Source of the DNA: Minisyncoccota bacterium
Lineage (GTDB): Bacteria; Patescibacteriota; Minisyncoccia; Phycocordibacterales; UBA9973
Reading direction: 5' to 3'
Assembly: GCA_035510575.1 (NCBI GenBank)
Contig: DATKGV010000004.1
Location: 88,419 to 152,418, forward strand
Length of the DNA: 64,000 bases
Shown here: positions 1 to 49,184 of the stretch, one piece after another
Numbering within the stretch: the stretch's first letter is position 1
Layout of the letters: the number at the start of each line of letters is the position of its first letter
Made by a program: the position numbers and the translations under genes
The notes under the pieces: generated by a model
The model's database searches: none
Told to the model about the DNA's origin: nothing
Seen by the model: the letters and a program-made list of their open reading frames with translations, nothing else

Positions 1-249
1 ATCATGATCATATACAACTACATTTCCTTCGGGTGGATATATTGATATAAGAATTTCTGTATGATTAGGTGCATCGCATTTTCTTTTAAATAACACTCGT
101 TCATTTCTCCAAGCTAAACGTCTTTGCATTCTGCATTCCGGGCAAAATGTCGGCGGAGGAACTTTTATTTTCTCATAAAAAGAAAAATCATCTGGCTCAA
201 TAATGAAGTCGTTTTTGCAGTTTTGGCAGGTTTTTGTTTGTGCTTCCAT
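1..249 (-). CDS. 5' part (83 codons, runs off window edge) of a Cys-rich zinc-ribbon protein, paralog of the 579-aa protein at 46082..47821
   Basis: Hand translation of the reverse complement gives MEAQTKTCQNCKNDFIIEPDDFSFYEKIKVPPPTFCPECRMQRRLAWRNERVLF..., about 70% identical over 50 aa to the N-terminus of the 46082..47821 protein. The DNA at 150..249 is about 85-90% identical to 47720..47821. The ATG is the reverse complement of 247..249 and the frame stays open to nt 1. The plus-strand ORFs in the track here are antisense shadows. Confidence 0.55.
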   Translation of the reverse strand, partial: MEAQTKTCQNCKNDFIIEPDDFSFYEKIKVPPPTFCPECRMQRRLAWRNERVLFKRKCDAPNHTEILISIYPPEGNVVVYDHD

Positions 250-313
250 ATCTATATACTACAACTATTCTTTTAAAAAACAATTGCAAAAATCCGCCTC
301 GGCTTTTTATTTA

Positions 314-3300
314 TTACGAATTATTAGCCAATTCTTCTTCAGTTTTTTCTTTTATTTTTCTTATTTTTTTGACGCCGAAGCCGGTACCTGCCGGAATCAG
401 ATTGCCAATAATGACATTTTCTTTGAGCCCGCGAAGATTATCAACTCCGCCGCGAATAGCGTTATTGATTAAGACACGATTAGTGTTTTGGAATGACGCA
501 GCAGAAAGCCATGACTTGGTTGTAAGCGAAACTTCAGTAATTCCAAGAACGATAGTTGAGGCCTCAGCTTTTTTGCCGTTTATAGCTTCCACGCGCTCAT
601 TCTCTTCAATAAGCTCTATCGCCTCGACTATTTCGCCGGGCGAGAATGTCGTATCTCCGGCATCTTTTATCTTTTTGCGCGAGAACATCTGGCGGATGAT
701 TATTTCAATATGCTTTCTGGAAATTGAGGCGCTTTGCAAATCATAAACTTTGTTTATTTCGCTCACGATATACTCTTCGGCTATTTCCTTGCCTCCATAT
801 TTGACAATATCATTGATATCGGCAGATCCGTCAGTAAGCAAGTCGCCTTTTTTAACCTTGCTTCCTTCTTTAACCAACGGCTGGCGCCTGAAGGCGACGA
901 CATATTCCATTTCGGATTTTTTAACGCCAGATTTTAACGTTGTTTGGGAAGACAAATCAGAAAGAACTTTTATAATTTTTTCCTTGCCATTATCCTTGAC
1001 TTCAATGACTTCGCCATCCGTAACAGAAATAACTGCCGGATTTTTAGGAACGCGCCTTTCAAATATTTCTTCAACGCGAGGAAGACCCGTGGTAATATCC
1101 ACAGTCGCCACGCCTCCGGCGTGGAATGTGCGGAGCGTCAGCTGAGTTCCCGGTTCGCCGATGGCTTGCGCGGCGATAATTCCGACGGCCTGCCCAAGCT
1201 CTATCATGCAGTTGCGTCCAAGATCAAGGCCGTAGCACATTCGGCAAATGCCATGGGTTGTTTCGCAAGAAAGCGGGGTTCTCACATGCGCTTCAGTAAT
1301 GCCCATCTTTTCAATCATTTTGGAATCTTCTTTCATAATTAGCGATCCCTTTTTAAATGCAACTTTGCCGCTCTTATCTTTGATATCGGCAAGCAAGACC
1401 CGCCCATGGACATACTTGGCTAATATTCCGCCAGTGGCGGTTATTTTTTTGCCATTTTTCGTGCCGCAATCTTCCTGCGTTATGACAACATCTTGAGCCA
1501 CATCCACCAAGCGTCGGGTAAGATATCCGGCCTTGGCGGTATTAAGAGCCGTGTCGGCAGCGCCTTTTCTGGAACCGTGAGTCGTAATGAAATATTCAAG
1601 AGGCGATAATCCTTCAATGTATGACGGAATAATCGGGAAATCAAGCGTTGCGCCGGAAGTATTGACAATCAAGCCCTTCATTCCGCACATTTGCACCAGA
1701 GAACCCATATTGCCGCGGGCGCCCGATGTGATAAGATCGTAAGTCGATCCTCTATTGTCCAATGTTTCAGGAATAATTTTTTCAATTTCCTTTTTCGCTT
1801 GCTCCCATATTTCGATCACTTTCTGATACTGTTCTTCCTCTGACAGAAGGCCTTCGCTGAATTGATCGCGGACAATTTCTTCTTCCTTGCGCGCCTTATT
1901 TACTATTGATGATTTGCCTTTCGGCACAGAAACATTATCAATGCCCCATGTCACTCCGGAATATGTGGCGTAATGATAGCCGAAGTCCTTTATTTTATCC
2001 AAGATTGAAGGCGTCGCATCGATGCTGTAGTGAACTATGAGCTCGTCAACAAGGAGCGACATGCGCTTGATGGTAATTTCTTCGTTTATAAATGGAAAAT
2101 CATCCGGGAAAATGCTGTTAAAGAACAATCGTCCGACAGTCGTCTCAAACGGCTTGCCTTCAAACTTTTTATATCTGGCTTTGTCGCTGCCAAGAACTTT
2201 TATCTTCGCTCTGAATGTTATTACTCCCAGATCAAACGCCGTTATAGCTTGATTTGGATTTGAAAATGCCATTCCCTCGCCTTTTTCTCCATCCATCAAT
2301 TTGGTCATCCAATAGCATCCAAGAACCATATCCATCTTAGGCATGACGATAGGAGTGCCGTCTTGGGGCTTGAGCAGATTTTTGTTTGATGCCATATAAT
2401 CATGAGCTTCTTTTTGAGCCATATCGGAAAGAGGCACATAGACAGCCATTTGGTCTCCGTCAAAGTCGGCATTGAAACCGGTGCATACTAGAGGATGAAC
2501 TTGAATAGCGTTGCCTTCGATAAGAATCGGATTGAAGGCCTGAATGCCCAAGCGGTGAAGCGTCGGAGCGCGATTGAGCAACACATATTTTCCTTTAATC
2601 ACTTCTTCAAGAATAGCCCAAACCTCCGGTATTCCTTCTTCAATCAGGCGATTGACGCCGCGAATATTGAAAGCCAGTTCTGTTTCAAGAACCTTGGCGA
2701 TGACGAACGGCCTGAAAAGTTCCAGCGCCATGTGCTTCGGCAGACCGCATTGATTGAGCTTGAGCTGAGGACCAACGACAATAACAGAACGGCCTGAATA
2801 ATCCACTCGCTTGCCGAGAAGATTCTGGCGGAACAGCCCTTGTTTTGATTTTAAATTATCTGAAAGGGATTTTAATGCGCGCTTCTGCGATGCGGATACG
2901 GCATGGGAATCATTCTGCTTGGCTATTGAATTGTCTATCAGCGCATCCACGGCTTCCTGCAAAATTCTTTTTTCATTGCGAAGAATAACGTCCGGCGCGC
3001 CTATTTCTTTCAATTTCTTCAAGCGATTATTTCGGTTGATGACTCGGCGATACAAATCATTCAGATCGGAAGTTGCGTGGCGTCCGCCGTCCAGCGCCAC
3101 CATCGGGCGGAGAGCCGGAGGAATGACCGGAATTACAGTCAAGAACATCCACTCGGGGCGGATGCCTGAAGCAATCATTGATCTTATTAAAGAAAGCCGT
3201 TTCTCGAGCTTCTCTTTTTCTAGGCTTGAGGCCTTCCCAAGCATGGCAAGGGTCTCGGTTCTTGTTTTCTCTAAATCGATATTCTTGAAAAGAGAATATA

Positions 3301-3952
3301 TCGCTTCAGCTCCTATATTCGCCTCGAAACAGCTTCCATATTTGAGTCCGAAATGATGATAAGCGATTTCATTAAGCACTTTTCCCAAGGTAATGTCGTT
3401 TATTTCCCTCTTGGTATTAGTCAAGAGTTCTTTTAATTTCTCTTTTTCTTCGTCATTGCTTGCGCTCTTTATTTTGGCTTTGAATTCGCTTTCAAGATTC
3501 TTGATTATTTTTTCTTTTTCCTCACTATAAACGTTTGTAATTATATATCCGGCAAAATATATGACCTTTTCAAGATCATTGACCGGTATATTCAAAAGGA
3601 CGGACATTCTGGAAGGAACCCCGCGCAAGAACCAAATATGGGCTACTGGGCTTGCCAATTCTATGTGGCCCATGCGATCGCGCCTGACTATCGAGCGAGT
3701 AACTTCAACTCCGCATTTTTCGCAGATGATGTCCTTGTAGCGTATGCGTCGGTATTTTCCGCAATAACATTCATAGTCCTTTTCAGGGCCGAATATGCGC
3801 TCATCAAAAAGCCCGTTGCGCTCGCTGCGGCCGGTTCGATAATTAATGGTCTCGGGCTTGGTAACCTCGCCATACGACCATTCGCGTATGCGTTCAGGGC
3901 TGGCCAGCTTGAGCGATATTGAATCAAAATTTGTTGTATCAATTGTTTTCAT
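314..3952 (-). CDS. rpoC: DNA-directed RNA polymerase subunit beta-prime
   Basis: The 1234-aa ORF carries rpoC hallmarks (ASPERIREWSYGEVTKPETINYRT, NADFDGDQMAV). The start was moved to the internal Met MKTIDTT (ATG rc of 3950..3952). The upstream 22 codons translate the rpoB-rpoC palindrome and overlap the rpoB stop. Confidence 0.95.
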   Translation of the reverse strand: MKTIDTTNFDSISLKLASPERIREWSYGEVTKPETINYRTGRSERNGLFDERIFGPEKDYECYCGKYRRIRYKDIICEKCGVEVTRSIVRRDRMGHIELASPVAHIWFLRGVPSRMSVLLNIPVNDLEKVIYFAGYIITNVYSEEKEKIIKNLESEFKAKIKSASNDEEKEKLKELLTNTKREINDITLGKVLNEIAYHHFGLKYGSCFEANIGAEAIYSLFKNIDLEKTRTETLAMLGKASSLEKEKLEKRLSLIRSMIASGIRPEWMFLTVIPVIPPALRPMVALDGGRHATSDLNDLYRRVINRNNRLKKLKEIGAPDVILRNEKRILQEAVDALIDNSIAKQNDSHAVSASQKRALKSLSDNLKSKQGLFRQNLLGKRVDYSGRSVIVVGPQLKLNQCGLPKHMALELFRPFVIAKVLETELAFNIRGVNRLIEEGIPEVWAILEEVIKGKYVLLNRAPTLHRLGIQAFNPILIEGNAIQVHPLVCTGFNADFDGDQMAVYVPLSDMAQKEAHDYMASNKNLLKPQDGTPIVMPKMDMVLGCYWMTKLMDGEKGEGMAFSNPNQAITAFDLGVITFRAKIKVLGSDKARYKKFEGKPFETTVGRLFFNSIFPDDFPFINEEITIKRMSLLVDELIVHYSIDATPSILDKIKDFGYHYATYSGVTWGIDNVSVPKGKSSIVNKARKEEEIVRDQFSEGLLSEEEQYQKVIEIWEQAKKEIEKIIPETLDNRGSTYDLITSGARGNMGSLVQMCGMKGLIVNTSGATLDFPIIPSYIEGLSPLEYFITTHGSRKGAADTALNTAKAGYLTRRLVDVAQDVVITQEDCGTKNGKKITATGGILAKYVHGRVLLADIKDKSGKVAFKKGSLIMKEDSKMIEKMGITEAHVRTPLSCETTHGICRMCYGLDLGRNCMIELGQAVGIIAAQAIGEPGTQLTLRTFHAGGVATVDITTGLPRVEEIFERRVPKNPAVISVTDGEVIEVKDNGKEKIIKVLSDLSSQTTLKSGVKKSEMEYVVAFRRQPLVKEGSKVKKGDLLTDGSADINDIVKYGGKEIAEEYIVSEINKVYDLQSASISRKHIEIIIRQMFSRKKIKDAGDTTFSPGEIVEAIELIEENERVEAINGKKAEASTIVLGITEVSLTTKSWLSAASFQNTNRVLINNAIRGGVDNLRGLKENVIIGNLIPAGTGFGVKKIRKIKEKTEEELANNS

Positions 3953-3965
3953 ATTGTTATTTGTT

Positions 3966-4007
3966 CCACATGTCGGACTTGTGGCTAGCCACAAGTCCGA
4001 CATGTGG
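3966..4007. repeat. 42-nt perfect palindrome CCACATGTCGGACTTGTGGCTAGCCACAAGTCCGACATGTGG in the rpoB-rpoC intergenic space
   Basis: The reverse complement, computed by hand, equals the sequence. It lies exactly between the rpoB stop (4018..4020) and the rpoC start (3952). Confidence 0.9.
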
Positions 4008-4017
4008 TCTTTTTCCA

Positions 4018-7000
4018 TTAATCATTCCGACTTCTTTTAAGATCAACATCGAGAGCCAGGCCTCGGAGATAATTCAGCAATACATTAAATGATGCCGGTA
4101 TATTCGGTTCTCCGATCGGCTGACCTTTAATAATGGCGTCAAAAGTCGCGGAGCGCCCCATGATATCGTCGGACTTGATAGTCAGCATTTCGCGAAGCGT
4201 ATAAGCGGCGCCGTGGCCTTCCAGAGCCCAGACCTCCATCTCGCCGAATCTTTGTCCGCCGCCTTGGGCCTTGCCGCCGAGCGGTTGCTGAGTAATAAGA
4301 GAGTAAGGGCCTATAGAACGCATATGCAGCTTGTCTTCAACCATGTGATGAAGCTTAAGCATGTACATATAGCCGATAGCGATATCTTGATTGAAAGCGT
4401 CTCCGGTGCGTCCGTCATACAGAGTCACTTTGCCGCTTTCGGGCAGCCCCGCTTTTACAAGTTCGGCTTTGATTTCCGGCACAGTCGCGGACGAGAAAGG
4501 AGGAATAATAGCTTGGTAGCCGAGAGTATGAGCGGCGTAGCCCAAATGCATTTCAAGAATCTGCCCCAAGTTCATGCGGGAAGGCACGCCGAGAGGCGTA
4601 AGAATTATGTCAATAGGAGTGCCATCCGCCATAAACGGCATTTCTTCTTCAGGCAGGATAATGGATATGACTCCTTTGTTTCCATGACGGCCGGCAAGCT
4701 TGTCGCCGACTGAAATATTTCTGACTTGGGCTATTTCAACAACTATCTTTTTGATAATGCCGGATTCAAGATTATGTCCTTGGTCGCGCGAGAAAATTTT
4801 CACTCCGACGACGCGTCCGCGCTTGCCATGCTCCAAGCGGAGCGATGTGTCTTTGACGTCGCGAGCTTTCTCGGTAAAAATAGATCGGAGCAAGCGCTCT
4901 TCCGGCGTAAGTTCGGTCTCGCCCTTAGGAGTAATTTTGCCGACAAGAATATCATTTTCTCCGACTTCGGCGCCGATAATCACTATTCCATCTTCGTCCA
5001 AATCCTTTAATTTATTCTCGCCGACATTCGGTATGTCGCGAGTGGTAATTTCAGGTCCGAGCTTCGTATCGCGAACGCTGCAGATGAATTCTGTAATATA
5101 AATGCTGGTAAATTTGCTTTGTTTAACTAACCTCTCGGATAATATGATGGCATCCTCATAGTTGGCGCCGCCCCACGACATGAATGCGACAAGAACATTC
5201 TGGCCGAGAGCTATCTGGCCGTTGCAGGTAGTGCTGGTATCGGCAAGAACCTCGCCTTTTTTGACGTGATCTTGGAGCGACACGCTCGGACGCTGATGAA
5301 AGATAGAAAAGTTGTTAGTGCGGGAGAAAGTGATAAGCGGATAAACGTGTTCTTTGCCTTTATCGTCTTTGACAATTATTTTTTTGGCATCGACATAAAT
5401 GACTGTTCCGCTTGTCTCTGAAATAATCAATCGTCCGGAATCGCGGCTGGCCGACTCTTCTATGCCGGTTGCAACCAGAGGAGCTTCGGGAATAACGCAT
5501 GGCAGCGCCTGCTTCTGCATGTTGCTTCCCATTAATGTTCTGTGAGCATCATCATGTTCTAGGAATGGAATCATCGAAGTAGCCACCGAAAAGGCCTGAT
5601 TGGTAGCTACGTCTATGTAGTCAATTTCACTGCGAGAAACCATTCCTGGATTGGTCTTGATGCGGGCTTCGACTCTGTCTTCTATAATATTGCCTTTTTC
5701 GTCATAATCAGTGCCGGCATGAGCAATATTGAATTTTTCTTCTTCAAGCGCATTCAAATAAACCACTTCATTGGTGATTTTTCCGTTCTTTACTTTTATA
5801 TACGGCGTTTCAATAATGCCAAATTCATTTATTTTGGCGTATGTTGAAAGGTGCAAGATAAGGCCGATATTCGGACCTTCAGGCGTATGAATAGGACATA
5901 CTCTGCCGTAGTGGGACGTGTGCACATCGCGAACTTCAAGTCCGGCGCGTTCGCGCGTCAATCCGCCTGGACCAAGCGCCGAGAGCGTTCGTAAGTGCTC
6001 AATTTCAGCCAGGACATTTTCCTGATTCATGAATTGCGAAAGTTGATTGGCGGTGAAAAATTCTTTTATGCGGGCTTGGAGCGGGCGCTGATTTATGATT
6101 TGAATTGGCATTGTCGTCCCAACATCAATAGTCGACATGCGGTCCTGAATATTTCGCTTTATCTGAGCCATGCCCATGCGTATTTTCTGCTGGAACATCT
6201 CGCCTATATAGCGCACTCGGCGCTGTCCTAAGTGATCGATATCATCGGCTTTGGCATTCAAAGTATTATTGAGCTCGACTATGTTTGAAATAATAGCTAC
6301 TATATCGTCAGCAGATATTGTGCGGCGTTCCATTTCCTTGTCATCCATGCTTTTGCCGAAACGCTTGTTAAAACGGAATCGGCCGACGGGAGAAAGATCA
6401 TAGCGCTCCCCTGAAAGCAAAGTATTTATGAATTCGCGGGCATTTTCGCCGGTCGCTAAATCGCCGTCCCTGAGGCGCTTGTATATCTCTATGAATGAAT
6501 CAGAAACAGTTTTGGCGGGGTCCTTTTCAATGCAGACCTTTATGACTTTTTCATCCAATTCGTTCCCGCCTGCTCCCGAACCTTCGTGAGGGCGGGCAGG
6601 TTTGCTGAATGCTTTCATTAGGCCTTCATTGGTCGCCAGTCCTAATACGCGAAGAAGGGACGCGATGGAAAATTTTCTTTTCTTGTCTATGCGGACATAG
6701 ATGCAGCCGTCCGGGTCGGATTCTATCTCGATCCAAACGCCTCGCGCCGGAATAATTTTCGCTCCGAAATAGCGCTTGCCTTTTATTTCTTGGTCGGTAA
6801 AAAATACGCCGAATGATCTGGTCAGCTGGGGAACAATAACGCGCTCTACCCCGTTGATTATGAAAGTGCCATGCTTGGTCATTAGCGGCACGTCAGCCAT
6901 GAATATTTCCTGCTCTTTGGAAATTCCCATGCTTTTATTAAGAAGCTTGACTCGCGCTTTGAGAGATCCTTCATAAGTCAGCTTGTTGATCTTTGAGTAT

Positions 7001-7227
7001 TCCTCGTCGAATTTCGGCTCGCCTAATGAGAATGAAGTGAAATCAAGCTGAAATTTCTTGTCGGAATAATCATTGATCGGGGAAAATTCTTTGAAAACTT
7101 CCGACAGGCCTTTTTCCACCAGCCAGTTGAAAGAAACCAGCTGATTTTCAATCAGATTAGGAAATGACACTAACGGCTTCTTATATCTGGCAAAATATTT
7201 CTTCTCTCGTTCAGCTGTTTTTTTCAT
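4018..7227 (-). CDS. rpoB: DNA-directed RNA polymerase subunit beta
   Basis: The 1081-aa ORF has conserved rpoB blocks (GPGGLTRERAGLEVRDVH, NMQKQALP, the GEMEVWALE region). The start was placed at MKKTAEREKK (ATG rc 7225..7227), which aligns with canonical rpoB N-termini. Confidence 0.95.
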   Translation of the reverse strand: MKKTAEREKKYFARYKKPLVSFPNLIENQLVSFNWLVEKGLSEVFKEFSPINDYSDKKFQLDFTSFSLGEPKFDEEYSKINKLTYEGSLKARVKLLNKSMGISKEQEIFMADVPLMTKHGTFIINGVERVIVPQLTRSFGVFFTDQEIKGKRYFGAKIIPARGVWIEIESDPDGCIYVRIDKKRKFSIASLLRVLGLATNEGLMKAFSKPARPHEGSGAGGNELDEKVIKVCIEKDPAKTVSDSFIEIYKRLRDGDLATGENAREFINTLLSGERYDLSPVGRFRFNKRFGKSMDDKEMERRTISADDIVAIISNIVELNNTLNAKADDIDHLGQRRVRYIGEMFQQKIRMGMAQIKRNIQDRMSTIDVGTTMPIQIINQRPLQARIKEFFTANQLSQFMNQENVLAEIEHLRTLSALGPGGLTRERAGLEVRDVHTSHYGRVCPIHTPEGPNIGLILHLSTYAKINEFGIIETPYIKVKNGKITNEVVYLNALEEEKFNIAHAGTDYDEKGNIIEDRVEARIKTNPGMVSRSEIDYIDVATNQAFSVATSMIPFLEHDDAHRTLMGSNMQKQALPCVIPEAPLVATGIEESASRDSGRLIISETSGTVIYVDAKKIIVKDDKGKEHVYPLITFSRTNNFSIFHQRPSVSLQDHVKKGEVLADTSTTCNGQIALGQNVLVAFMSWGGANYEDAIILSERLVKQSKFTSIYITEFICSVRDTKLGPEITTRDIPNVGENKLKDLDEDGIVIIGAEVGENDILVGKITPKGETELTPEERLLRSIFTEKARDVKDTSLRLEHGKRGRVVGVKIFSRDQGHNLESGIIKKIVVEIAQVRNISVGDKLAGRHGNKGVISIILPEEEMPFMADGTPIDIILTPLGVPSRMNLGQILEMHLGYAAHTLGYQAIIPPFSSATVPEIKAELVKAGLPESGKVTLYDGRTGDAFNQDIAIGYMYMLKLHHMVEDKLHMRSIGPYSLITQQPLGGKAQGGGQRFGEMEVWALEGHGAAYTLREMLTIKSDDIMGRSATFDAIIKGQPIGEPNIPASFNVLLNYLRGLALDVDLKRSRND

Positions 7228-7450
7228 ATAAAAAGAAAAACAAAAAAACACCAAGGCGACCAAACCTGTGCGTTATTATTTATTTATAATTGGCAGTGAT
7301 ATTGTTTTTAAGCACAAAAAATGCCTGCTACCCGCTTACAAAACTTATTAAATTAGTGCGATTGATGCCATAACTCAATCTAGTCAATCTGGGTCTGAGT
7401 ATACAGAAAAATAATTCTTTGTCAAGAAAGTTATCAACAGCATCATCGAA

Positions 7451-7561: not shown

Positions 7562-7588
7562 AGTAAGCTAGGACAGTCCTAGCTTACT
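7562..7588. repeat. REP-like palindrome AGTAAGCTAGGACAGTCCTAGCTTACT (core AAGCTAGGACAGTCCTAGCTT)
   Basis: Near-perfect palindrome with an unpaired centre base. It overlaps the last codons and the TAG stop of the RAYT gene. Confidence 0.85.
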
Positions 7589-8259
7589 GAAGTGAAATAA
7601 TTTTCAACAAATTTTTGGAATGACTGCTTTAATTGAAAATAATCTGGAAATGCTACTTTATTTAAAATATTACCTTCCACTCTATCGAGACCAAGATAAT
7701 CAAAATAACTTGAATAATTATATGATTCAAGAAAATCTTTCATTGCTTTATTGTCAACATTTTTATTCTTATCCTGTTTTTCCCAACCAGAAAACTTTAT
7801 ATCAAATACATTTAGATGGATATATGCAAAAAGTTGTCGCATATAATTATCATCTGTTTTTATACATTTTGATTTAAAAGGCCCACCGAATAAAGCACCT
7901 TGTCTTTGATATTTTATATTGAAGAACATTGAATATCCTGTACCTAATTTTTTCATAAATTTAGTAATACCACTATCTATTTCCTGTCTAACCAAAATAT
8001 GAAAATGGTTTGCCATAAGACACCATGCGCCAATTGAAACAAGCGGTTTACCCTTATCTAAAATCATAACTTCAAAAAAAGACTTTTTTTGTTGATTTAT
8101 AAGATTATTTAATTTAAATTCCTCCTGAGAATTTGAAATATAAATAAGCATAATAAATCTTTCAAAATCATATTTTGATTTGAAAATAATTCTTTTATCT
8201 ATACCACGATTGTACAAATGATAATATTCGCCAGTGATAAATGGATCTTTTCGCAACAT
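7579..8259 (-). CDS. HUH-family Y1 transposase (RAYT / IS200-like TnpA)
   Basis: Motifs: YHLYNRG N-terminal block, HUH motif NHFHILV, and the catalytic Tyr block YIHLN (compare YIYINP in E. coli RAYT). Confidence 0.75.
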   Translation of the reverse strand: MLRKDPFITGEYYHLYNRGIDKRIIFKSKYDFERFIMLIYISNSQEEFKLNNLINQQKKSFFEVMILDKGKPLVSIGAWCLMANHFHILVRQEIDSGITKFMKKLGTGYSMFFNIKYQRQGALFGGPFKSKCIKTDDNYMRQLFAYIHLNVFDIKFSGWEKQDKNKNVDNKAMKDFLESYNYSSYFDYLGLDRVEGNILNKVAFPDYFQLKQSFQKFVENYFTSVS

Positions 8260-8268: not shown

Positions 8269-8309
8269 TATATACCATAAGCTAGGACAGTCCTAGCTTA
8301 TGGTATATA
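8269..8309. repeat. REP-like palindrome TATATACCATAAGCTAGGACAGTCCTAGCTTATGGTATATA
   Basis: 41-nt near-perfect palindrome 10 nt upstream of the RAYT start. It shares the 21-nt core with 7562..7588. Confidence 0.85.
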
Positions 8310-8343: not shown

Positions 8344-11300
8344 TTAATTTGCTGCATCACTTGGAGGAACTACAGGATCTGGAGCAGATGTAGAATCAGG
8401 CGCTGCAGGCGGAGTCACAACTTGATCGCTTGGGGGAACTGTTGTATCGTCTGCAGGCGGAGTTACTGATGAATCACTTGCAGGAGCTGTCGAATCTGAA
8501 GCTGGAACCGTTGAATCGGTGGTTGCGGGTTCGGTTGCAGATGGTGCTGATGAACCCGAATTGTCTGCGGTAGAGCTTACATGCGCATTATTTAAAATTT
8601 GAATCAATTGCGCTTCGTCAATGCAGGTATTATTGATGCAGATTTCATTGCTGCTATGAATTGTCTTGGCATACAGATCAGCGATGCCATTGGCTTGATC
8701 AGCTAAGAATTGCGTGATGAGCGAACCTAATGAAGTAGCCGAAGTCGTATCAAGAGACGAAAGATCTTTTATTTTGAGATCCATTTCTTGAATGGCTTTA
8801 ACCGCGTATGGCATCATGCCTAAGTAGTTGAGTGATAGAAGATTGGTATTTGGATCGGTAGAAACCAAATCAGGGAAGATTTGCTTTACATCTTGAGCAA
8901 TGAAGCCGGCATGCTTGGCATCGGTGTCTTGTTCAACTTTCCAATTATACGTTACTGGAACTAGAGCAAGTATTTTGTCCAGTGTTGTTATTGGAGTCGT
9001 GCCAAGTTCTGTTTCCGTCCATGCCATGCCATCTAGAGTGTTGACGTTCTTTTTTAAATTCATGTCTGAACTGCAAGCAAAACCGCTTGATATCGGCACA
9101 ACATCGCAAGTTCCTGCGGAAGTTTGAAATCTTCCTACAATTATATTAGCCGTAGTGGAAGCCGAGCCGACATGGAGAAGATAGCCGGGAGCAGTATTGG
9201 AAATTCCGACATCGCCGTTGCCTAATATTCTCATCGCTTCCGTCATTGTCTGCAATGTCGTGCCACTTCCAAGAGTTTTGCCCGTTGAGAAAATTATGTT
9301 CGAAGCTCCTGTGCCTGTGCCTAGACCAGAGTTTAGCAATAGATTTCCGCCAACCACGTTAGAAACAGAAGTTCCAGCGACAGTTGAACCTGATTGAATA
9401 GTCAGATTATTAGGCGCGACGTCAGTGGCGGAATTTTCAATCCACATGGTTCGATCAGCGCCGGCTCCGAATGATAAAATATTGGTCGGCGTACTTGTAC
9501 CAATACCCAAAGTCGTAATGCTGCTATTGCCTATCACCACCTGGTTGCTGGCGGTAGTGTAAGCGGCATTTCCCAGAGCCATTGAGTTGATAGCGCCTAC
9601 AAGCTGGCTGGCGTTACTTCCGGCGTTAGCTCCCAAAAATGTATTCTGATAGCCGACTGTTATAGACGAACCAGCCGAATTACCAATACCCGTATTAGAA
9701 CCATTATTTCCAGAACCATTCGTGAAAGAAGAAAGAGCGGAAACTCCGACAGCGACATTAGCGCCCGCGGCAGTAACGTTAGGCAGAGCGTTAGTTCCAA
9801 AAGCCGTATTGCCAGTAGTAGTTGTTTTTGCCAAAGCCCCATTGCCAACAGCCGTATTATTTCCTCCTGAAATATTTGCCGCCAGAGTGTTCCAACCAAT
9901 CGCTATATTTTGCGAGCCTGATGTCAATACATTCATAGCTCCTATGCCGATGCCGACATTCTTATCACCAGTCATTGCTGGCGGTCTGGCTCCAATAAGA
10001 ATTGAAAGAGGGTTAGCTGTGCCGATGCTCCCAGCGTTATAAACCGAGAATAGAGAACCGCCATTAGCGTCTGCCACGTTGAGAGTTGGAACATTTACTG
10101 TCGTGGTGATTGTCCAGGTAGCGCCTATGCCATGAGTAAGCTTTCCACCGAAAGTAACCGTCACGCCGTTAGATAATGCTTGAGCCGCAAGAGTAATCGC
10201 CGTATCAGCCGAACTAGCTCCGCCGTCCACATTCCAAGTGAACATATCATAACCCTGTAAAGCGGAAATATTGACTGTACAGCCCGTTCCAGTTCCGCCA
10301 GTTGTCGCTACTACTCCCGTTGAATATCCTGATCCGCCAGTCAAAAGTGTCATCGCATTACATCCCCCGCTTGATAAGCTCGTAACCTTTACGGTCGCCG
10401 CGCCATTGCCGCCAGTCAAAGTCAAAACATCATTCACTGTATAACCTGAACCGCCGACTGATTTGGCGACTGTCTTGACCGGATTTATCTCACTGATAGT
10501 AACGACATAAGACGAATTAGTATTGCCGACATAAGTTCCGCCCGCAGTAGCGTCGTTCGTTCCTGAACCTGAGAATACAACCGCTGACCGAGTCGCCAAA
10601 GATTTTACATCAAGAGTGGCGACGGGAGAAGTATTATTTATCCCTAGACGGATATTCGCCCCGTCATAAGCGGAACTAGCCCCGAAAAATATCTTGCCTT
10701 TCGTAGCGTTTGAAGTAGAATTTAAAGTTAGGTTTTCACCAGCGGCAGTACCGCCGTAAACAGTTTGCCCGCCGGCAATGCCGGTAGCCAGATTATCAGT
10801 AATGGTGTTTGTGGAACGAGTTAAGCCCGTGGAAAAAGTAAGAGGCACCTCGTAAGCGTTAGCGTTAGTGAACGCGGCTGAACCAAGAGTTCCCCCGCCA
10901 GTTGGAATAGTTAAAGTCGCTCCCGCCGCCGGCCAAGTTAAAGTTCCCGCCCCGCCGTTATTGGTGAATGTTGTAGTGAAAGTGGCGTTAGAAACGGCCA
11001 CTGCTGTTCCGCCCACTGCCAAAGCGCCAACGTCGGAATAAGTCAAATTCGTGCCATTGATTTTGTAATGAGAACCAGTCGCAATATTAACATCTCCATT
11101 AACATCTAATTTGTAGTTAGGCGCAGTTATTCCTATTCCCACTTTTTGAGCGCTATCTATTCTCATCGCTTCAGTCAAAACAGATGGCGAAGCGTCAGTC
11201 GCTGTAGAAAATGACAAATAAGTAGGAATACGAGTAGAAGCCACTGTACCGGAAACTCCGACATCTATGCTTCCCATTTCAAGATAACTTGCTCCGTCAT

Positions 11301-13923
11301 ATCCCCTGAATAGCAAACGGCCTAACATATCACCTGTGTTTACTGAAAGAAGCGCAGATGGAGTTCCGCGCGCTTTCCAAAATCCCAAGCGGGCAGAGTT
11401 TGTGCCGTTGTTTATTTGTGATGACACAATTCCTCGCGGATCAGAAGTATCAGTAGTAACGACTTGAAGTTTTGTAAGAGGAGCGGTAGTTCCGATTCCC
11501 AGACGATTATTTGTCTCATCATAAGCTGAAGCTCCCATGATTATTAAACCTTTTGTAGCGTTTGAAGTAGAAGTTAAAGTTAGATTTCCTGAAGCGGCAG
11601 TATCGCCGACTAAAGTCGTTCCGCCTGCTATGCCGACATTGTTTTGAAGATAGCCAGTGAGAGATGCAGAAGTCAAATAAGCAACATTGCTTCCCGATGT
11701 TACAAGCCCGCTTGTTCCTACTGTTACATTATTATAAGTTCCTGCAGATGTTCCTGCAGAAGTTAGGAATCCGCCGTAATTTCCCAGATCATTTGTGAAA
11801 GAAGAAAGAGCGGTCGGGAAAGTTGCCAGAGACAAATCACCTCTGAAATATTGAGATGTCGTGCCGGTGGTGATCGTGTTTTGTTTGGCATTGAGGGCAG
11901 TTTGAGTAGCAGTTGATATTGGTTTGTTAGCATCAGATGTATTATCAACATTACTTAGTCCAACTTGAGATTTGGTTAGGCCAGTTAAAGATGAACCATT
12001 GCCATTTGGAGCCAGGAAAACTGTGCCGGCATCAGTAGTGTAGACGCCGTTGGTGACTGTGCCTGCTGTTAATCCTGCGGCGGTACCAGTAATATTTGTG
12101 CCGACTAAAGCAGAAGGAGTTCCAAGGTTGGGAGTGGCAAGCGTCGGAGAGTTTCCAAATACAAGAGATCCGCTTCCCGTTTCATCCGAAATGACTCCTG
12201 CTAATTGAGCAGAAGTGGTAGCGGCAAATGCGGACAAATTATTAGTCGTCAAGGCCACGGTACCTGTAAGATCCGGGAAGGTATAAGTTTTGTCGGAAGA
12301 AGAAAGATGCGCTACATCAAAGATTCCAAATAGTGTCGGCGAAGGGCCATTTTCCAGCATTTTCAGTCCAGCGGAAGAATTATTGAGAACAATATTATAA
12401 GGTGCGGTTTGATTCCAATCCTGAGTCAAAGGACCTAAAGAAAGGACATTAGAAATATTTTGTAAACCATTGCCATAAGATAAGTTTACATTAGCGGATA
12501 GTTGTACCCATTTGGCGAGTGTTCCTGAATAAGTAAATGAAATACCGTAATAAAGAGAACTGGAGTTTTCCACAAAGCGAGCATCACCGCTTGTTGGAGC
12601 AATGCCTGTATAAGTAAAGGCCCCAGGCGTACCGCCTGTCACATTAAATATATAATCTTTAAAACCAGCAAATGTGCCAAAAGGCGCAGTTGAGGATACC
12701 AGCGCCACGCCAAATCGGTCGCCCAAAACCAAAGAATCCAGTTTTACCCACGCGCCATTTTTATATTCTACTATATCGCCCGGAGCAAAAGCGGACCAAA
12801 CACCGGTGTTTCCGCCTGTGTCAATGATATAACCGTCGCCTTCAACAGTGGTTCCGACCGGTGTAGCGGAATTGGCAATAACATTCACAGCTTGAAGCCC
12901 TGTTTTCCAATTCAATCCCATGGCATTATTATCAACGTATGTTTTTACCGCATTTTGCGTTGGATAGAGCGTGTTAGAGGTGCCAAGAGATGTGTTCGTA
13001 GATTTATTGGCAACATCTTCTGGTGTAAACCCTAAGGCAGTATTTACGTCACTCCCAGTAATTCCAGAAATGTATCCGGCAGGATTGGTGGCATTGTAAG
13101 GAGTATAGCCGATAAGTGATGCCACAGAAATATCGCCAGCCCCTAAAAGATTATTAGAATTGATTGTTTTGATATTTGTGCCGGAAACAAGAGTATCTTG
13201 TTTACCAGAAATATCAGTCGTTTGAGTAGCAGCATTTATTGTGAAATTCGGATAAGTGCCGGTAACCGAAGTGATATTAGTTCCCGCTGAAATAGCGACG
13301 GTTTGGTCGGGAGCAATAGATATATCTCCACTACCCAAAAGCGAACTAGAATTGATTGTTTTGATGTTTGTGCCGGCAGGCAAAGTTACCGTGCCGGTAA
13401 AAGTCGGCGAATTGAGAAGTGCGTATAAGCTTGAATCAATTCCTCCCAAGGTCTTGGCATTGATGGCAGCTCCGCTTGAAGTAATACGCCCTCGCGGACC
13501 GAGCGTTTCAAAAGTTATATTATTAGATGAGACCTCCACTTGAAGATAGACGGTATCATTATCTTGGAAATTATAAGTTAGAGCATCAGGATAGCCCGAT
13601 CCTGTATCTCCGATATTCACATCAAAAACACCGTTGGTAACAGAGAGAGTAGCTGTGCCGGGCGAACCTGATGGCCAAAGTTTCGCGCCAGAACCGACAG
13701 TCGGATTATCCCAAATAGAAAATTTAAAATAATAATTTGTGCCTGTTCCTCCCAAAAGAACTCCGTTTGAGTCCGTTAGCCGGCCTTGATAACTAATGAT
13801 ATTAGGAACGCCGGCGGCAGCGTGAGCAACAGAAAAAGAGAAAACGCCCAATATGAACACCGCTAAAATGGCATAGATGCTCTTTGACAAAAAATTATAT
13901 CTCCTTTCAAACATACTTTCCAA
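8344..13923 (-). CDS. Giant (1859 aa) secreted/anchored surface protein with tail-fibre-like repeats and a C-terminal intramolecular-chaperone (peptidase S74-like) domain
   Basis: N-terminal hydrophobic signal/anchor segment. Long G/T/S/N-rich repeat blocks (NTAIG..AL, GIGTTAPxxKLxV). Near the C-terminus, SSDMNLKKNVNTLDG...LALVPVTYNWK...HAGFIAQDVKQIFPDLV...LSLNYLGMMPYAVKAIQEM matches the phage tail-fibre / endosialidase chaperone domain. This is followed by a Pro/Ser/Thr-rich tail. DNA-level internal repeats are visible, for example around 13140..13400. Confidence 0.8.
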   Translation of the reverse strand: MESMFERRYNFLSKSIYAILAVFILGVFSFSVAHAAAGVPNIISYQGRLTDSNGVLLGGTGTNYYFKFSIWDNPTVGSGAKLWPSGSPGTATLSVTNGVFDVNIGDTGSGYPDALTYNFQDNDTVYLQVEVSSNNITFETLGPRGRITSSGAAINAKTLGGIDSSLYALLNSPTFTGTVTLPAGTNIKTINSSSLLGSGDISIAPDQTVAISAGTNITSVTGTYPNFTINAATQTTDISGKQDTLVSGTNIKTINSNNLLGAGDISVASLIGYTPYNATNPAGYISGITGSDVNTALGFTPEDVANKSTNTSLGTSNTLYPTQNAVKTYVDNNAMGLNWKTGLQAVNVIANSATPVGTTVEGDGYIIDTGGNTGVWSAFAPGDIVEYKNGAWVKLDSLVLGDRFGVALVSSTAPFGTFAGFKDYIFNVTGGTPGAFTYTGIAPTSGDARFVENSSSLYYGISFTYSGTLAKWVQLSANVNLSYGNGLQNISNVLSLGPLTQDWNQTAPYNIVLNNSSAGLKMLENGPSPTLFGIFDVAHLSSSDKTYTFPDLTGTVALTTNNLSAFAATTSAQLAGVISDETGSGSLVFGNSPTLATPNLGTPSALVGTNITGTAAGLTAGTVTNGVYTTDAGTVFLAPNGNGSSLTGLTKSQVGLSNVDNTSDANKPISTATQTALNAKQNTITTGTTSQYFRGDLSLATFPTALSSFTNDLGNYGGFLTSAGTSAGTYNNVTVGTSGLVTSGSNVAYLTSASLTGYLQNNVGIAGGTTLVGDTAASGNLTLTSTSNATKGLIIMGASAYDETNNRLGIGTTAPLTKLQVVTTDTSDPRGIVSSQINNGTNSARLGFWKARGTPSALLSVNTGDMLGRLLFRGYDGASYLEMGSIDVGVSGTVASTRIPTYLSFSTATDASPSVLTEAMRIDSAQKVGIGITAPNYKLDVNGDVNIATGSHYKINGTNLTYSDVGALAVGGTAVAVSNATFTTTFTNNGGAGTLTWPAAGATLTIPTGGGTLGSAAFTNANAYEVPLTFSTGLTRSTNTITDNLATGIAGGQTVYGGTAAGENLTLNSTSNATKGKIFFGASSAYDGANIRLGINNTSPVATLDVKSLATRSAVVFSGSGTNDATAGGTYVGNTNSSYVVTISEINPVKTVAKSVGGSGYTVNDVLTLTGGNGAATVKVTSLSSGGCNAMTLLTGGSGYSTGVVATTGGTGTGCTVNISALQGYDMFTWNVDGGASSADTAITLAAQALSNGVTVTFGGKLTHGIGATWTITTTVNVPTLNVADANGGSLFSVYNAGSIGTANPLSILIGARPPAMTGDKNVGIGIGAMNVLTSGSQNIAIGWNTLAANISGGNNTAVGNGALAKTTTTGNTAFGTNALPNVTAAGANVAVGVSALSSFTNGSGNNGSNTGIGNSAGSSITVGYQNTFLGANAGSNASQLVGAINSMALGNAAYTTASNQVVIGNSSITTLGIGTSTPTNILSFGAGADRTMWIENSATDVAPNNLTIQSGSTVAGTSVSNVVGGNLLLNSGLGTGTGASNIIFSTGKTLGSGTTLQTMTEAMRILGNGDVGISNTAPGYLLHVGSASTTANIIVGRFQTSAGTCDVVPISSGFACSSDMNLKKNVNTLDGMAWTETELGTTPITTLDKILALVPVTYNWKVEQDTDAKHAGFIAQDVKQIFPDLVSTDPNTNLLSLNYLGMMPYAVKAIQEMDLKIKDLSSLDTTSATSLGSLITQFLADQANGIADLYAKTIHSSNEICINNTCIDEAQLIQILNNAHVSSTADNSGSSAPSATEPATTDSTVPASDSTAPASDSSVTPPADDTTVPPSDQVVTPPAAPDSTSAPDPVVPPSDAAN

Positions 13924-27593: not shown

Positions 27594-27597
27594 GATT

Positions 27598-27807
27598 TTA
27601 TTTTTTCTTTTTAGCTTGCTTCTTCTCTACTTTCTTTACCACATCTATAACCTTGCGCCCGTTGTAAAAACCGCAATTTTTGCAAATTATATGAGTTTCC
27701 TTTGCTCCCTTGCAATTTGAACACGTGGCAAAAACCTTGGCTTTCAAGGCATGATGTGATCGGCGGTTCCCCGTATGAGCTCGCGTATGTCGCATTCGTA
27801 CTACCAT
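27598..27807 (-). CDS. rpmF: 50S ribosomal protein L32
   Basis: RMRHTRAHTGNRRSHHAL N-terminal block plus a CxxC...CxxC zinc ribbon. Confidence 0.7.
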   Translation of the reverse strand: MVVRMRHTRAHTGNRRSHHALKAKVFATCSNCKGAKETHIICKNCGFYNGRKVIDVVKKVEKKQAKKKK

Positions 27808-46016: not shown

Positions 46017-46037
46017 AAATAATTTAATTTCTCTTAG

Positions 46038-46071
46038 TGCTACAAACTCTGCACGTGCAGAGTTTGTAGCA
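46038..46071. repeat. 34-nt perfect palindrome TGCTACAAACTCTGCACGTGCAGAGTTTGTAGCA (copy 1)
   Basis: The reverse complement, computed by hand, equals the sequence. Lies between the purD start and the stop of the Cys-rich gene. Confidence 0.9.
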
Positions 46072-46081
46072 TTTTGTTATT

Positions 46082-47821
46082 TTAATACACCTCTTGTTGA
46101 TAACACTTTTCACAATAAATAATTTCTGGCCTCTCAGGTGCATAACTTGTCTCAAATTCCACTTGGCATTTTCCTTGATGAATATGAGTGGTTTTATCGC
46201 ACATGCATGATCTATGCCAGAGTTTCATGGGGTTTCTTTGAGCTAGTCGCTCATAGTGCCGACAGTTAGGACAGAGATGAGGTAATGGCAAGTTCATTCT
46301 CTTGTAGAATTGAAGCTCTTCAGGGATGATCTTGAAGGCCTCGGTGCATTGTTGGTTACAGGTTCCTTTATGATTACATTCTATGACTTTACCTATGATG
46401 TCGTCTGTTATGTCTTTTATGTTATCGGGAATGTCTTTATTGTATATATCTATCTCATAGTTTCTTTCTTCTTTGTCTTTCCATTTGTAACCTTGATTTA
46501 AAGCTTGTTCTTTAGTTAATGGGAAGTACTCTTGAGCTATTGTTTCGTTGTAGCAGAATGGTGATAGTTCGCTTGGGAAGAATTCTCCATATTTATATAT
46601 TCTACCTTTACTATCTATGTAGGGCATATCGTTCATGTGCTTGATGATTTTGGGGACTAATTCTTCATATTCTTCTTTGGTGTATTGACGGTTTAGGATG
46701 CAGAATTGATTACTCTTTAAACTAGTACACCCAAACAAATCAGAAGAAGACGCACAAAAATCTGAATAAAAAACATTTCTTAGATTTTTTAATCCATTAT
46801 TTGCAAATAATAAATTATAGCTATTATTTGCTCCCCCTCCGGAAAATTCATAAATTAATTCGCAATCCGCTATATTATTACCTTCATAACAATCTTTGGA
46901 TCCATAACACCTAAATATATTTTTTGTATTTTCGATATTATATGCATCAAAAGACATTTTTGCATTTTTTGCATTAGATAATTCATCGCCTGTACTACTT
47001 GTAGATTTTATTATTTGAGCGTATTTACGAGGAAATTTTTTCATAATATTTTCAAATTCTTCTTTTGTTTTTTGGATATTTCTAAAACTACCAAAATCAA
47101 AAGTTTTAATTTTCTCTTTATACTCTTTCTCATTAAGTTGTATGTTGTTAAAAACATATTTTTTATTTCTTAACCCTACTGAACAAAAACAATTCTGACA
47201 ATCAATACAATCAAAAAGAAAAGATGAATCAATGCAATTTCGGCAAAGTATCAAAAAAGACGAATTATAGTTATTTTCTCCTCGAATATTTTCATAGCAT
47301 AAATTAGAGTTAATAAGACTCAAGCTATCAAAAACATCTTTGGATCTATCAATGCTTTTGCAAAAAAATATATTTTCCGAATTATTTACCGAAAATGATA
47401 AGTAAAGATTTTTACTTTCGCCAATTATATTGGAATATTCGCTATTTAAACAATTTCTGTTGAATAAGTTAGGTCTTGGAACTTTTTGATTTAATTCTTT
47501 CAATTGTTCAAAGAATGATTTAGAAAAATCATATTTTAAACCAAACGACAAAGGGTCCCAATTGTCGGAATACCAACAATTTATGCAATATATGGGAAAA
47601 GAAGAATTCTGATGGTACATAGTTATGCCTTTTTTACCACAAATACCGCAAGTAAAATGATAAAGTGATCTTTCGTTACGAAATTGAATACGGCGCATTG
47701 TTCTACATTCAAAACAAAAAGTCGGCAGAGGAACTTTTATTTTTTCATAAAAAGAAAAGTCGTCTAGCTCAATAATAAAGTTGTTTTTGCAATTTTGGCA
47801 GATTTTAGTTTCTGAATTCAT
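46082..47821 (-). CDS. Cys-rich multi-zinc-ribbon protein (579 aa) with N/S-rich low-complexity centre; unknown function
   Basis: N-terminal CQNC...CFEC and C-x2-C...C-x2-C pairs. The C-terminal ribbon repeats the N-terminal motif (FY.K...PLP..C..CR...R...RN occurs at both ends). More than 40 Cys in total. No RuvC, HNH or radical-SAM motif was recognised. AT3-biased codons. A paralog lies at 1..249. Confidence 0.7.
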   Translation of the reverse strand: MNSETKICQNCKNNFIIELDDFSFYEKIKVPLPTFCFECRTMRRIQFRNERSLYHFTCGICGKKGITMYHQNSSFPIYCINCWYSDNWDPLSFGLKYDFSKSFFEQLKELNQKVPRPNLFNRNCLNSEYSNIIGESKNLYLSFSVNNSENIFFCKSIDRSKDVFDSLSLINSNLCYENIRGENNYNSSFLILCRNCIDSSFLFDCIDCQNCFCSVGLRNKKYVFNNIQLNEKEYKEKIKTFDFGSFRNIQKTKEEFENIMKKFPRKYAQIIKSTSSTGDELSNAKNAKMSFDAYNIENTKNIFRCYGSKDCYEGNNIADCELIYEFSGGGANNSYNLLFANNGLKNLRNVFYSDFCASSSDLFGCTSLKSNQFCILNRQYTKEEYEELVPKIIKHMNDMPYIDSKGRIYKYGEFFPSELSPFCYNETIAQEYFPLTKEQALNQGYKWKDKEERNYEIDIYNKDIPDNIKDITDDIIGKVIECNHKGTCNQQCTEAFKIIPEELQFYKRMNLPLPHLCPNCRHYERLAQRNPMKLWHRSCMCDKTTHIHQGKCQVEFETSYAPERPEIIYCEKCYQQEVY

Positions 47822-47857
47822 GCGTAAATTATAACCCCAAAAACCCTCTTCTACAAG

Positions 47858-47891
47858 TGCTACAAACTCTGCACGTGCAGAATTTGTAGCA
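47858..47891. repeat. 34-nt palindrome copy 2 (1 mismatch) centred in the divergent promoter region; candidate operator
   Basis: TGCTACAAACTCTGCACGTGCAGAATTTGTAGCA. Each arm contains a TTGTAG hexamer roughly 16-17 nt upstream of a TATAAT-like element, one for each divergent gene. Confidence 0.85.
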
Positions 47892-47915
47892 TATTATTTT
47901 TGATTAATATATAAT

Positions 47916-48398
47916 ATGAACATGTCTATTGTTATGGAAATTTTAGAAGAACTTTGGAACACTGAGCTTAATTATAAAGGAATTAAAGTAAATATTTTTG
48001 GTATTCCTCGTTTTAAACAATATTCATCTAAAAGCGTTAGGGCAACTATTGATCGCCTAAAAAGAAAGGGCGTCATAGAAAAAGAATTAACTGGAATAGT
48101 ACTCTCAAAATATGGCAAAGAATATGTCAGAAGAAAAATTGATTCATTAAAACAATTTGATAGACCAGAAAATATATCTAAAGATAAAAATCTTCTAGTA
48201 ATGTTTGATATACCTGTTGAGAAAAAAGGGGAACGCGAATGGTTCCGATGGCATCTCAAAAAATTTGGTTATATTATGATTCAACATAGTGTATGGGTTG
48301 GACCATCTCCCCTACCCAAAGAATTTCTTGATTATGTTAAAAGTATAAAACTTGATAAATGTATTAAAACTTTTAAACTTGAAAAACCTTATAAATAA
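47916..48398 (+). CDS. Minimal PaaX-like regulator: winged-HTH plus Cas2-like domain
   Basis: The N-terminal wHTH (VRATIDRLKRKGVIEKE...LSKYGKEYVRRK) parallels PaaX (VRTALFRLNKEGWL...LSDKGLRLTRR). The block LLVMFDIPVEKKGEREWFRWHLKKFGYIMIQHSVWV fits the Cas2 / PaaX-central-domain pattern (beta-strand with Asp, basic helix, G...Q.SVF/W). Confidence 0.65.
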   Translation: MNMSIVMEILEELWNTELNYKGIKVNIFGIPRFKQYSSKSVRATIDRLKRKGVIEKELTGIVLSKYGKEYVRRKIDSLKQFDRPENISKDKNLLVMFDIPVEKKGEREWFRWHLKKFGYIMIQHSVWVGPSPLPKEFLDYVKSIKLDKCIKTFKLEKPYK

Positions 48399-48401
48399 GA
48401 A

Positions 48402-48435
48402 TGCTACAAACTCTGCAGGTGCAGAGTTTGTAGCA
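48402..48435. repeat. 34-nt palindrome copy 3 (centre CAGGTG instead of CACGTG)
   Basis: TGCTACAAACTCTGCAGGTGCAGAGTTTGTAGCA. Starts 4 nt after the stop of the PaaX-like gene. Confidence 0.85.
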
Positions 48436-48459
48436 TTCTTGGAAAACGATTACATGAGA

Positions 48460-49179: not shown

Positions 49180-49184
49180 AAAAA

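Follow-up and report, generated by a model that had tools for sequence, protein, structure and literature searches.

The first 249 nucleotides of a 64,000-nucleotide stretch of DNA from a Minisyncoccota bacterium (GenBank assembly GCA_035510575.1, contig DATKGV010000004.1, positions 88,419 to 152,418; hereafter, the window) contain the beginning of a gene that lies between rpoC and dnaG and is intact, with 583 codons. This gene, here called the edge paralog, encodes a cysteine-rich protein and is an ancient paralog of the gene at 46082..47821 of the same window, here called copy 2. Both genes belong to a very large and uncurated protein family that is restricted to the Paceibacteria (Patescibacteria, or candidate phyla radiation (CPR)). 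The explanation that we regard as the best overall, and as moderately probable, is that the edge paralog is an intact and ancient member of this family, that its 5' end has been kept similar to that of copy 2 by purifying selection and occasional gene conversion, and that its product would be the partner of an ATPase.

An in-frame TAG precedes the ATG (249..247) at which the edge reading frame starts, and the frame remains open to the edge of the window. The upstream extension that had been proposed as a check was made with JGI contig Ga0182021_10024130 (locus L001, 7,195 nt), which was found through the rpoC product and matches the window at every one of the 4,100 overlapping nucleotides. On this contig, the open reading frame (ORF) of the edge paralog is complete at 583 codons (L001:3947-5698) with no disrupting stops and is followed by a palindrome and then by dnaG. 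The 583-residue protein retains 45 of the 45 columns that are invariant in the family, and it is 72–77% identical to the orthologs P0001–P0007 from other samples. The position just downstream of rpoC and the limits of rpoC and rpoB (Table 1) are as the earlier note on this DNA had given them.

The 83 residues encoded within the window were compared with copy 2 using BLASTP. The N-terminal match contains 40 identities in 58 positions (69%, E 3e-26), in agreement with the original estimate of about 70%, and a second match was found to the C-terminal module of copy 2 (25/61, 41%, E 4e-12). A six-frame tblastn search of the 64-kb window returned no copy besides these two. At full length, the two proteins share 261 of 585 residues (45%, E 2e-170) and are collinear to the end. 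The claim of a genuine second paralog within a multicopy family was correct. The fractional identity between the two proteins is 0.67 in the N-terminal Zn module, 0.40 in the linker, 0.34 in solenoid 1, 0.23 in the helices, 0.32 in solenoid 2, 0.48 in the alpha/beta region, and 0.65 in the C-terminal Zn module. The strong divergence reported beyond residue 55 is therefore an artifact of the window edge. The apparent break at about this position arises from the edge itself and from a difference between the copies in their second metal site, which is a Cys4 ribbon (CxxC...CxxC) in copy 2, as in 59 of 150 family members, and a C-x4-H variant in the edge copy, as in 29 of 150.

When family ORFs of other species are ranked as relatives of the two copies, the in-genome paralog comes at positions 92 of 184 and 101 of 183, respectively, and thus each copy has about 90–100 closer relatives in other species among the 183–184 sampled. 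Across the family, the best identity to a same-genome paralog has a median of 43.7% and a maximum of 53%. The best identity to a protein from another species has a median of 57% and exceeds the same-genome best for 97% of the proteins. These ranks and identities demonstrate that the duplication is ancient and that the family is composed of stable paralog lineages, of which genomes of this group typically carry 2–7, often in tandem. The earlier description of a variable family did not hold, since these lineages are old and stably kept rather than fast-varying.

The homologue search (E ≤ 1e-3), in which 8,000 candidates were scored, identified at least 7,794 family clusters at 90% identity. All of the named clusters are from Patescibacteria (Paceibacterota, Staskawicz-, Lipton-, and Nomurabacteria, and others) and are labeled "hypothetical"; none of the clusters has a precomputed Pfam domain. 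An exhaustive profile search provided 2,114 representatives at 50% identity (E ≤ 1e-30), nearly all of which are 545–625 aa in length and collinear over their full length, and 560 family loci were confirmed among GTDB species genomes. Neither paralog returned anything above threshold in Pfam, NCBIfam, PADLOC, or PHROGs, a sequence-profile search of the PDB with the family gave no match, and searches of the literature library used found no paper that mentions the Cys-rich family. The family, which lacks a curated model and a solved structural relative, is undescribed.

The family proteins begin with a predicted treble-clef Zn module that includes a further metal site. Two Cys-rich beta-solenoid-like domains (S1 and S2), an alpha/beta region, and a C-terminal Zn module follow in that order. 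The two Zn modules are homologous to one another (hhalign probability of 99.1%, E 1e-18), as are S1 and S2 (hhalign probability of 99.6%, E 3e-24). The N-terminal module follows the pattern C-x2-C-x3-F-x-I-x3-D-x2-FY-x-K-x3-P-x-P-x2-C-x2-CR-x2-RR-x3-RNE, and all 13 of the residues that are invariant in aa 8–50 are present in the 83 residues of the edge fragment. The predicted ligands of the treble clef in this fragment are C8, C11, C36, and C39, and further along C58 and H63 open a second metal site, which is degenerate. For the structure models, P0001 (77% identical) stood for the edge protein, and the 83-residue fragment was modeled by itself. The AlphaFold2 model of P0001 has a predicted template modeling score of 0.85, with predicted local distance difference test (pLDDT) values of about 90 for the termini, and the model of the fragment has a pLDDT of 91. 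The edge protein is soluble. It has 36 Cys, with 34–36 across the two paralogs, the isoelectric point is 6–7, and hydropathy analysis of the paralogs identified no hydrophobic segment, signal peptide, or membrane segment. From these properties, we infer that the family proteins are cytoplasmic and bind metal, probably zinc.

The N-terminal module resembles PF13451 (zf_Tbcl), a probable treble-clef zinc domain, in its CxxC...CPxC spacing and in its predicted topology of a beta-hairpin knuckle and a helix-start knuckle. However, the module (aa 5–44) scores 21.7 bits (E 1.9e-4), which is below the gathering cutoff of 24 bits, and the full-length proteins give no zf_Tbcl match. The family module also differs from zf_Tbcl in being about 80 aa long with a second metal site, in being duplicated at the C-terminus, and in being fused to a 400-aa core for which there is no curated family. 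A related finger, PF23477 zf_Tbcl_2/TIGR04272 (CxxC-x17-CxxC), occurs on the long form of an ATPase that is encoded next to family genes (see below). Known beta-solenoids (the ryegrass ice-binding protein 3ULT, curli CsgA 8C50, and the left-handed beta-helix acyltransferases) are 4–9% identical in sequence to the family. A Foldseek search of the PDB returned nothing, and the Pfam repeat families of beta-solenoids (pentapeptide, hexapeptide, bactofilin, and curlin) did not match. Unlike these beta-solenoid proteins, the family protein is Cys-rich, apparently cytoplasmic, and flanked on both sides by Zn modules, and its solenoids are modeled with a confidence of about 60. As a multigene family of the zinc-finger/beta-solenoid kind, these proteins are new both in their architecture and in the genes with which they are associated.

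The earlier note had reported DNA identity of 85–90% over about 100 nt around the start codon and had taken this as a sign of recent duplication or gene conversion. The level of identity was confirmed, but not its placement. Of the first 100 nt of the coding sequence, 86 are identical between the edge paralog and copy 2, and the best ungapped segment (86/97) extends from +11 to +107. Upstream of the ATG, identity is only 28% over 81 nt, and thus the similarity sits inside the coding sequence and not around the start codon. Beyond approximately nt 105, the nucleotide identity falls to 43–48%. Within aa 8–35, there are 25 identical residues, for 19 of which the codon is identical as well, versus 12.7 expected from the codon usage of the window itself (P 0.006). 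Two other regions are saturated, aa 36–58 with 5 identical codons versus 5.3 expected and the conserved C-terminal 100 aa with 28 versus 30.4 expected. The edge copy and copy 2 are reciprocal best nucleotide matches in the block among 165 genes, and their identity of 0.893 is reached by just 0.06% of 13,392 cross-genome pairs.

Tandem paralogs in four other loci (L077, L070, L081, and L020) share no more than 53% protein identity and yet are 87–98% identical in nucleotide sequence in the same block, after which the identity drops to 30–57%. The shared tract in these loci is the first ~90–150 nt of the genes (L070:4252/6035/7755, L077:5015/6722, L081:5015/6774, and L020:3125/5012), and in L070 the shared block extends 60 nt upstream of the genes. 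High block identity is enriched in in-genome over cross-genome pairs (Fisher P 1e-7). These tracts and this enrichment establish short-tract conversion as a real and recurrent property of the family. Gene conversion is unambiguous in other family genomes and suggestive in the window pair (P 0.006–0.04, with reciprocal best matches). For the edge copy and copy 2, short-tract conversion is therefore no more than plausible, as an older or partial event.

The origin of the edge paralog and of the shared tract could be explained in other ways. The 83 codons visible in the window might have been read as the relic of a pseudogene. This reading fails because the 583-codon ORF is complete, on a contig of 100% identity, with all 45 invariant residues; the ORF is collinear with the family and has orthologs of 72–77% identity in other samples, and we consider a relic to be highly improbable. 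If copy 2 (46082..47821) or its cassette had been duplicated recently, this would account for the 86–89% nucleotide identity across ~100 nt of the 5' end, but several observations contradict it. The proteins are just 45% identical at full length, 90–100 proteins from other species are nearer to each copy, synonymous sites are saturated beyond the 5' tract and in the conserved C-terminal region, the DNA upstream of the two start codons is unrelated, and same-genome pairs are never more than 53% identical anywhere in the sampled family. Recent duplication, as suggested by the earlier note, is ruled out by this evidence to the extent that we see almost no chance for it. A much stronger contender, to which we assign a substantial chance although one short of even, is that the tract was produced without recombination by extreme purifying selection on the treble-clef module together with AT-biased codons and possibly constraints on the 5' end of the mRNA. 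No other part of the family is as conserved as this module, which has 13 invariant residues, genes from unrelated species are 80–86% identical to the edge copy in the block, and the cross-genome codon identity of AT-rich genes in the block is already 0.57, against which the window pair gives a P of 0.04. Selection by itself fits less well with the P of 0.006 obtained against the codon usage of the genome itself, with the reciprocal best matches of the two copies among the 165 genes, and with the C-terminal module, which has equally conserved residues and no codon excess. It also fits less well with the clear tracts of 95–100% identity, including upstream DNA, that are found at the same place in L070, L077, and L081. 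In the combined explanation that we favor, the ~97-nt tract coincides with the most conserved module of the family, where purifying selection under AT-biased codon usage would keep the copies alike, and occasional short-tract conversion between paralogs of the same genome probably adds to this likeness.

Family genes are commonly arranged in same-strand tandem arrays, with two or more family ORFs in 54 of 85 sources and up to 7 in 12 kb (L014). In 30 of 84 loci, they have as their commonest neighbor a gene for a soluble P-loop ATPase (about 500 aa) that is encoded on the same strand, often within a few bases of the array and often interleaved with it in the order ATPase, two Cys-rich genes, ATPase. 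The enzyme passes the Pfam cutoffs for T4SS-DNA_transf, TrwB_AAD_bind, and DUF87 but only distantly resembles TraD, VirD4, and CedD. A 2025 survey identified 5,713 VirD4-like type IV coupling proteins (T4CPs) across 2,918 Patescibacteria genomes, or about 2 per genome; just 148 of these are near virB4, and the authors suggest that they may have been exapted (PMC12102498). At this density, adjacency within 5 kb would be expected by chance in a few percent of cases, compared with the 36% observed. Six loci (L003, L027, L032, L050, L070, and L082; e.g., L070:123-10948) share the gene order of sigma70_r4/HARE-HTH, a DUF8128 membrane protein, the ATPase, and 1–5 tandem family genes, which looks like an undescribed CPR-specific cluster. 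A long form of the ATPase (L010:1018-3120) carries the CxxC-x17-CxxC treble-clef finger (PF23477/TIGR04272) at aa 452–485 and has a long low-complexity tail.

The adjacency to these ATPases in 30 of 84 loci leads us to propose, with low confidence, that the family proteins may serve the orphan VirD4/TraD-like coupling ATPases as adaptors or as cargo. In this mechanism, they would act together with the ATPases and with DUF8128, the membrane partner of these enzymes. Docking, to the ATPase or to nucleic acid, would be the task of the Zn modules, which are constant at both termini, and the lineage-specific solenoid core would provide each paralog with its own specificity. It is conceivable, although somewhat more doubtful still, that the family, the orphan ATPases, DUF8128, and the sigma70_r4/HARE-HTH protein together form an undescribed CPR-specific ATPase-driven system in which the paralogs have different specificities and their ends are homogenized by conversion.

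Two known systems provide partial analogies. DotN is a zinc-binding adaptor of the Legionella complex formed by DotL, a VirD4-type ATPase. DotN is soluble and binds zinc, and the Cys-rich family is encoded beside VirD4/TraD-like ATPases; however, the family proteins are far larger and multicopy, and none adjoins an ATPase in the window. The mycobacterial PE/PPE proteins are a multigene family linked to a secretion ATPase, ESX EccC. As an analogy only, they share with the Cys-rich family the many paralogs per genome, the conserved N-terminal module with a divergent body, gene conversion, and the link to an ATPase of the FtsK/TraD superfamily. There is no homology between them, and the Cys-rich family differs in being conserved at both termini, in having old lineages that are orthologous across species, and in binding metal, as we presume, with no evidence of export. 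With respect to T4CP systems in general, the T4CP homologues of Patescibacteria are mostly far from virB4 (PMC12102498).

Other functions were weighed against this proposal. The C-x2-C-x2-C-x2-C sequence in S1 (C207, C210, C213, and C216) and the rubredoxin-like CPxC knuckles could point to an iron-sulfur or redox function instead of a structural role for zinc. We consider this improbable, since there is no match to Fer4 or any other Fe-S family in Pfam even at E ≤ 1, a Fer4-type CxxCxxCxxxCP motif was not recognized by Pfam in the Cys-rich proteins, and the solenoid residues C132, C141, C183, C216, C289, and C292 are missing from copy 2. Of about the same low probability is a zinc protein that is associated with transcription or replication, as a partner of RNA polymerase, primase, or sigma factor instead of an ATPase. 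It is suggested by the order rpoB-rpoC-CYS-dnaG in the organism of the window, where CYS is the family gene, by rpoC-CYS-dnaG-rpoD in L069 and rpoC-dnaG-rpoD-CYS in L016 (both with an rpoC that is 86% identical to that of the window), by the absence of a terminator-like site between rpoC and the edge gene, and by the sigma70_r4/HARE-HTH gene that leads the ATPase clusters. The adjacency to rpoC is, however, limited to a narrow clade. L005, which holds the ortholog nearest to the edge copy (77%), and P0031 and P0033 show unrelated contexts, and the gene in the same slot of L069 represents the other of the two paralog lineages. Effectors or toxins that are exported, or sensors of an antiphage defense with a HerA/FtsK-type ATPase, would be expected to look in part like what is found here, with diverged tandem paralogs beside a translocase-type ATPase, weak PADLOC matches of that ATPase to mad8 and HerA (E 1e-10 to 1e-16), and genomic positions that shift among relatives. 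Such a role is nevertheless unlikely. The Cys-rich protein has no PADLOC or PHROG family match and no toxin or nuclease domain was found in it, the paralog lineages are old and conserved (median of 57% to orthologs) and not in the pattern of an arms race, and a protein with 34–36 metal-ligand-like Cys is an improbable unfolded substrate for secretion.

Several points count against the explanation that we favor, that of an ancient paralog shaped by selection and occasional conversion and partnered with an ATPase. The 5' tract was chosen post hoc, the codon excess is marginal when judged against the AT-rich baseline from other genomes (P 0.04, a fraction of 0.044), and the identity of unrelated species to the edge copy in the block reaches 84–86%. 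The confidence of the model is low in the solenoids (pLDDT of about 60), and the sampled loci are phylogenetically nonindependent. No T4CP-like ATPase is encoded in the 64-kb window, in the 7-kb L001, or in the 5.8 kb past the far end of the window (L085), and thus the functional link is one of guilt by association at the level of the family. In this organism and its close relatives, the family genes are found in housekeeping clusters (rpoBC-dnaG-rpoD and the pur operon).

The features of the window and of L001 that are relevant to the two paralogs are presented in Table 1.

Table 1. Coordinates of the edge paralog, copy 2, and associated features (positions in the window unless preceded by L001)
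Feature	Position	Strand	Basis or remark
Edge paralog, first 83 of 583 codons	1..249	-	Translation; full gene on L001:3947-5698
Spacer from rpoC stop to edge paralog ATG, 64 nt	250..313	-	Contains no palindrome
rpoC	314..4018	-	Pfam RNA_pol_Rpb1_1-5; N-terminal translation
rpoB	4018..7263	-	
High-identity tract, coding nt +11..+107 of edge paralog	143..239	-	86/97 (88.7%) identical to 47715-47811
Counterpart of tract in copy 2	47715..47811	-	
Copy 2, 579 aa, full-length paralog	46082..47821	-	45% identical to and collinear with edge paralog
C-terminal Zn module of copy 2 (aa 487-579)	46085..46363	-	Homologous to N-terminal module of both paralogs
PaaX-like small protein (Cas2-like central domain)	47916..48398	+	Pfam PF20803, E 3e-12
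36-nt palindrome, 8 nt past copy 2 stop	46038..46073	.	Outer stems GTGCTACAA/TTGTAGCAC-like
Second palindrome copy, between divergent copy 2 and PaaX-like genes	47858..47893	.	
Third palindrome copy, 21-nt arms, between convergent PaaX-like and purN genes	48397..48440	.	
36-nt palindrome GTGCTACAATCTCAGCCATGGCTGAGATTGTAGCAC, 9 nt past edge paralog stop	L001:5708-5743		Before dnaG

In the spacer between rpoC and the edge paralog, neither a terminator-like site nor a convincing promoter-like site was detected. Two loci from close relatives (L069:1343-9855 and L016:1-6710; rpoC 86% identical) have a family gene in the rpoC-dnaG-rpoD cluster, which in L016 occupies a different slot and in L069 belongs to the lineage of the other paralog. 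In L069, the gene that holds the slot of the edge copy shares 56.8% identity with copy 2 but only 44.8% with the edge copy. This suggests a local shuffling or replacement of paralogs in the cluster. Synteny with rpoC across the whole family was considered and rejected, since it holds in L069 and L016 only and P0031, P0033, and L005 are found in unrelated contexts. Copy 2 is located in a purine operon (window 42781-54392; purL, purQ, purF, purN, purD, purE, and purM), which it interrupts, together with the divergent PaaX-like gene, between purN and purD. In L059, L037, and L066, purN and purD are adjacent, and a copy-2-like gene is found between purL and purQ instead. The comparisons of L069 and L016 and of the pur operons indicate that the same neighborhoods are kept while the slot and the paralog lineage change. 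Weak PaaX-like homologues (E ~1e-8) are located beside family arrays in two other genomes (L068:4233-4391 and L051:9311-9679). In the 5.8 kb past the far end of the window, there are no further family copies.

The 34-nt palindrome is found in the window solely at 46039, 47859, and 48403, and these sites bracket copy 2 and the PaaX-like gene within the pur operon. Its absence from the 64-nt spacer to rpoC, stated previously, was verified. However, a related palindrome follows the stop codon of the edge paralog on L001, outside the window. The outer stems of 9 nt, GTGCTACAA/TTGTAGCAC, are common to this palindrome and the 3' palindrome of copy 2, and the four differences between their arms are all compensated on the opposite arm; the inner stem is variable. 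The shared outer stems and the compensated changes indicate that both paralogs carry the same kind of 3' hairpin element. The palindrome family was not found in any of the 83 other loci, and Rfam gave no match in the window.

In REP/RAYT elements, palindromes with a conserved GTAG/CTAC head also flank a Y1 transposase gene. The palindromes of the window carry CTAC...GTAG, but this explanation was rejected because the Y1 transposase gene of the window is flanked by different palindromes. That gene (7579-8259, minus strand), which is IS200-like and lies just upstream of rpoB, has its own palindromes at 7562-7588 and 8269-8309 with the common core AAGCTAGGAC|GTCCTAGCTT. A perfect 42-nt palindrome (21+21, loopless) is located at the rpoB/rpoC junction (3966-4007). 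As annotated, the rpoC ORF begins with an odd extension of 22 aa at the N-terminus, and the true start is probably an internal ATG near 3952, in which case the 42-nt palindrome would fall in the rpoB-rpoC spacer. A perfect hairpin at 27551-27604, whose AT-rich arms of 25 nt enclose a loop of 4 nt, overlaps the first codons of the ORF at 26634-27593 (minus strand) and reaches just upstream of it. A 1,859-aa protein encoded at 8344-13923 has a C-terminal Peptidase_S74 (endosialidase chaperone) domain, which is typical of phage tail-fiber-like or large surface proteins. A similar protein is encoded just past the far end of the window (L085), together with cohesin/dockerin-like and Ice_binding proteins.

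The second paralog is itself ordinary, but the family behind it is among the larger uncharacterized families of the Paceibacteria. Genomes of about 1 Mb keep little that is dispensable, and yet these hold 2–7 old paralogs, which implies an important role. The recurrent homogenization of the 5' end is a clean natural example of short-tract conversion limited to one conserved module. The adjacency of the family to ATPases bears on the question raised in 2025 of why Patescibacteria hold thousands of VirD4 homologues away from type IV secretion systems (PMC12102498), and the association with orphan T4CP-like ATPases makes that question a testable pairing.

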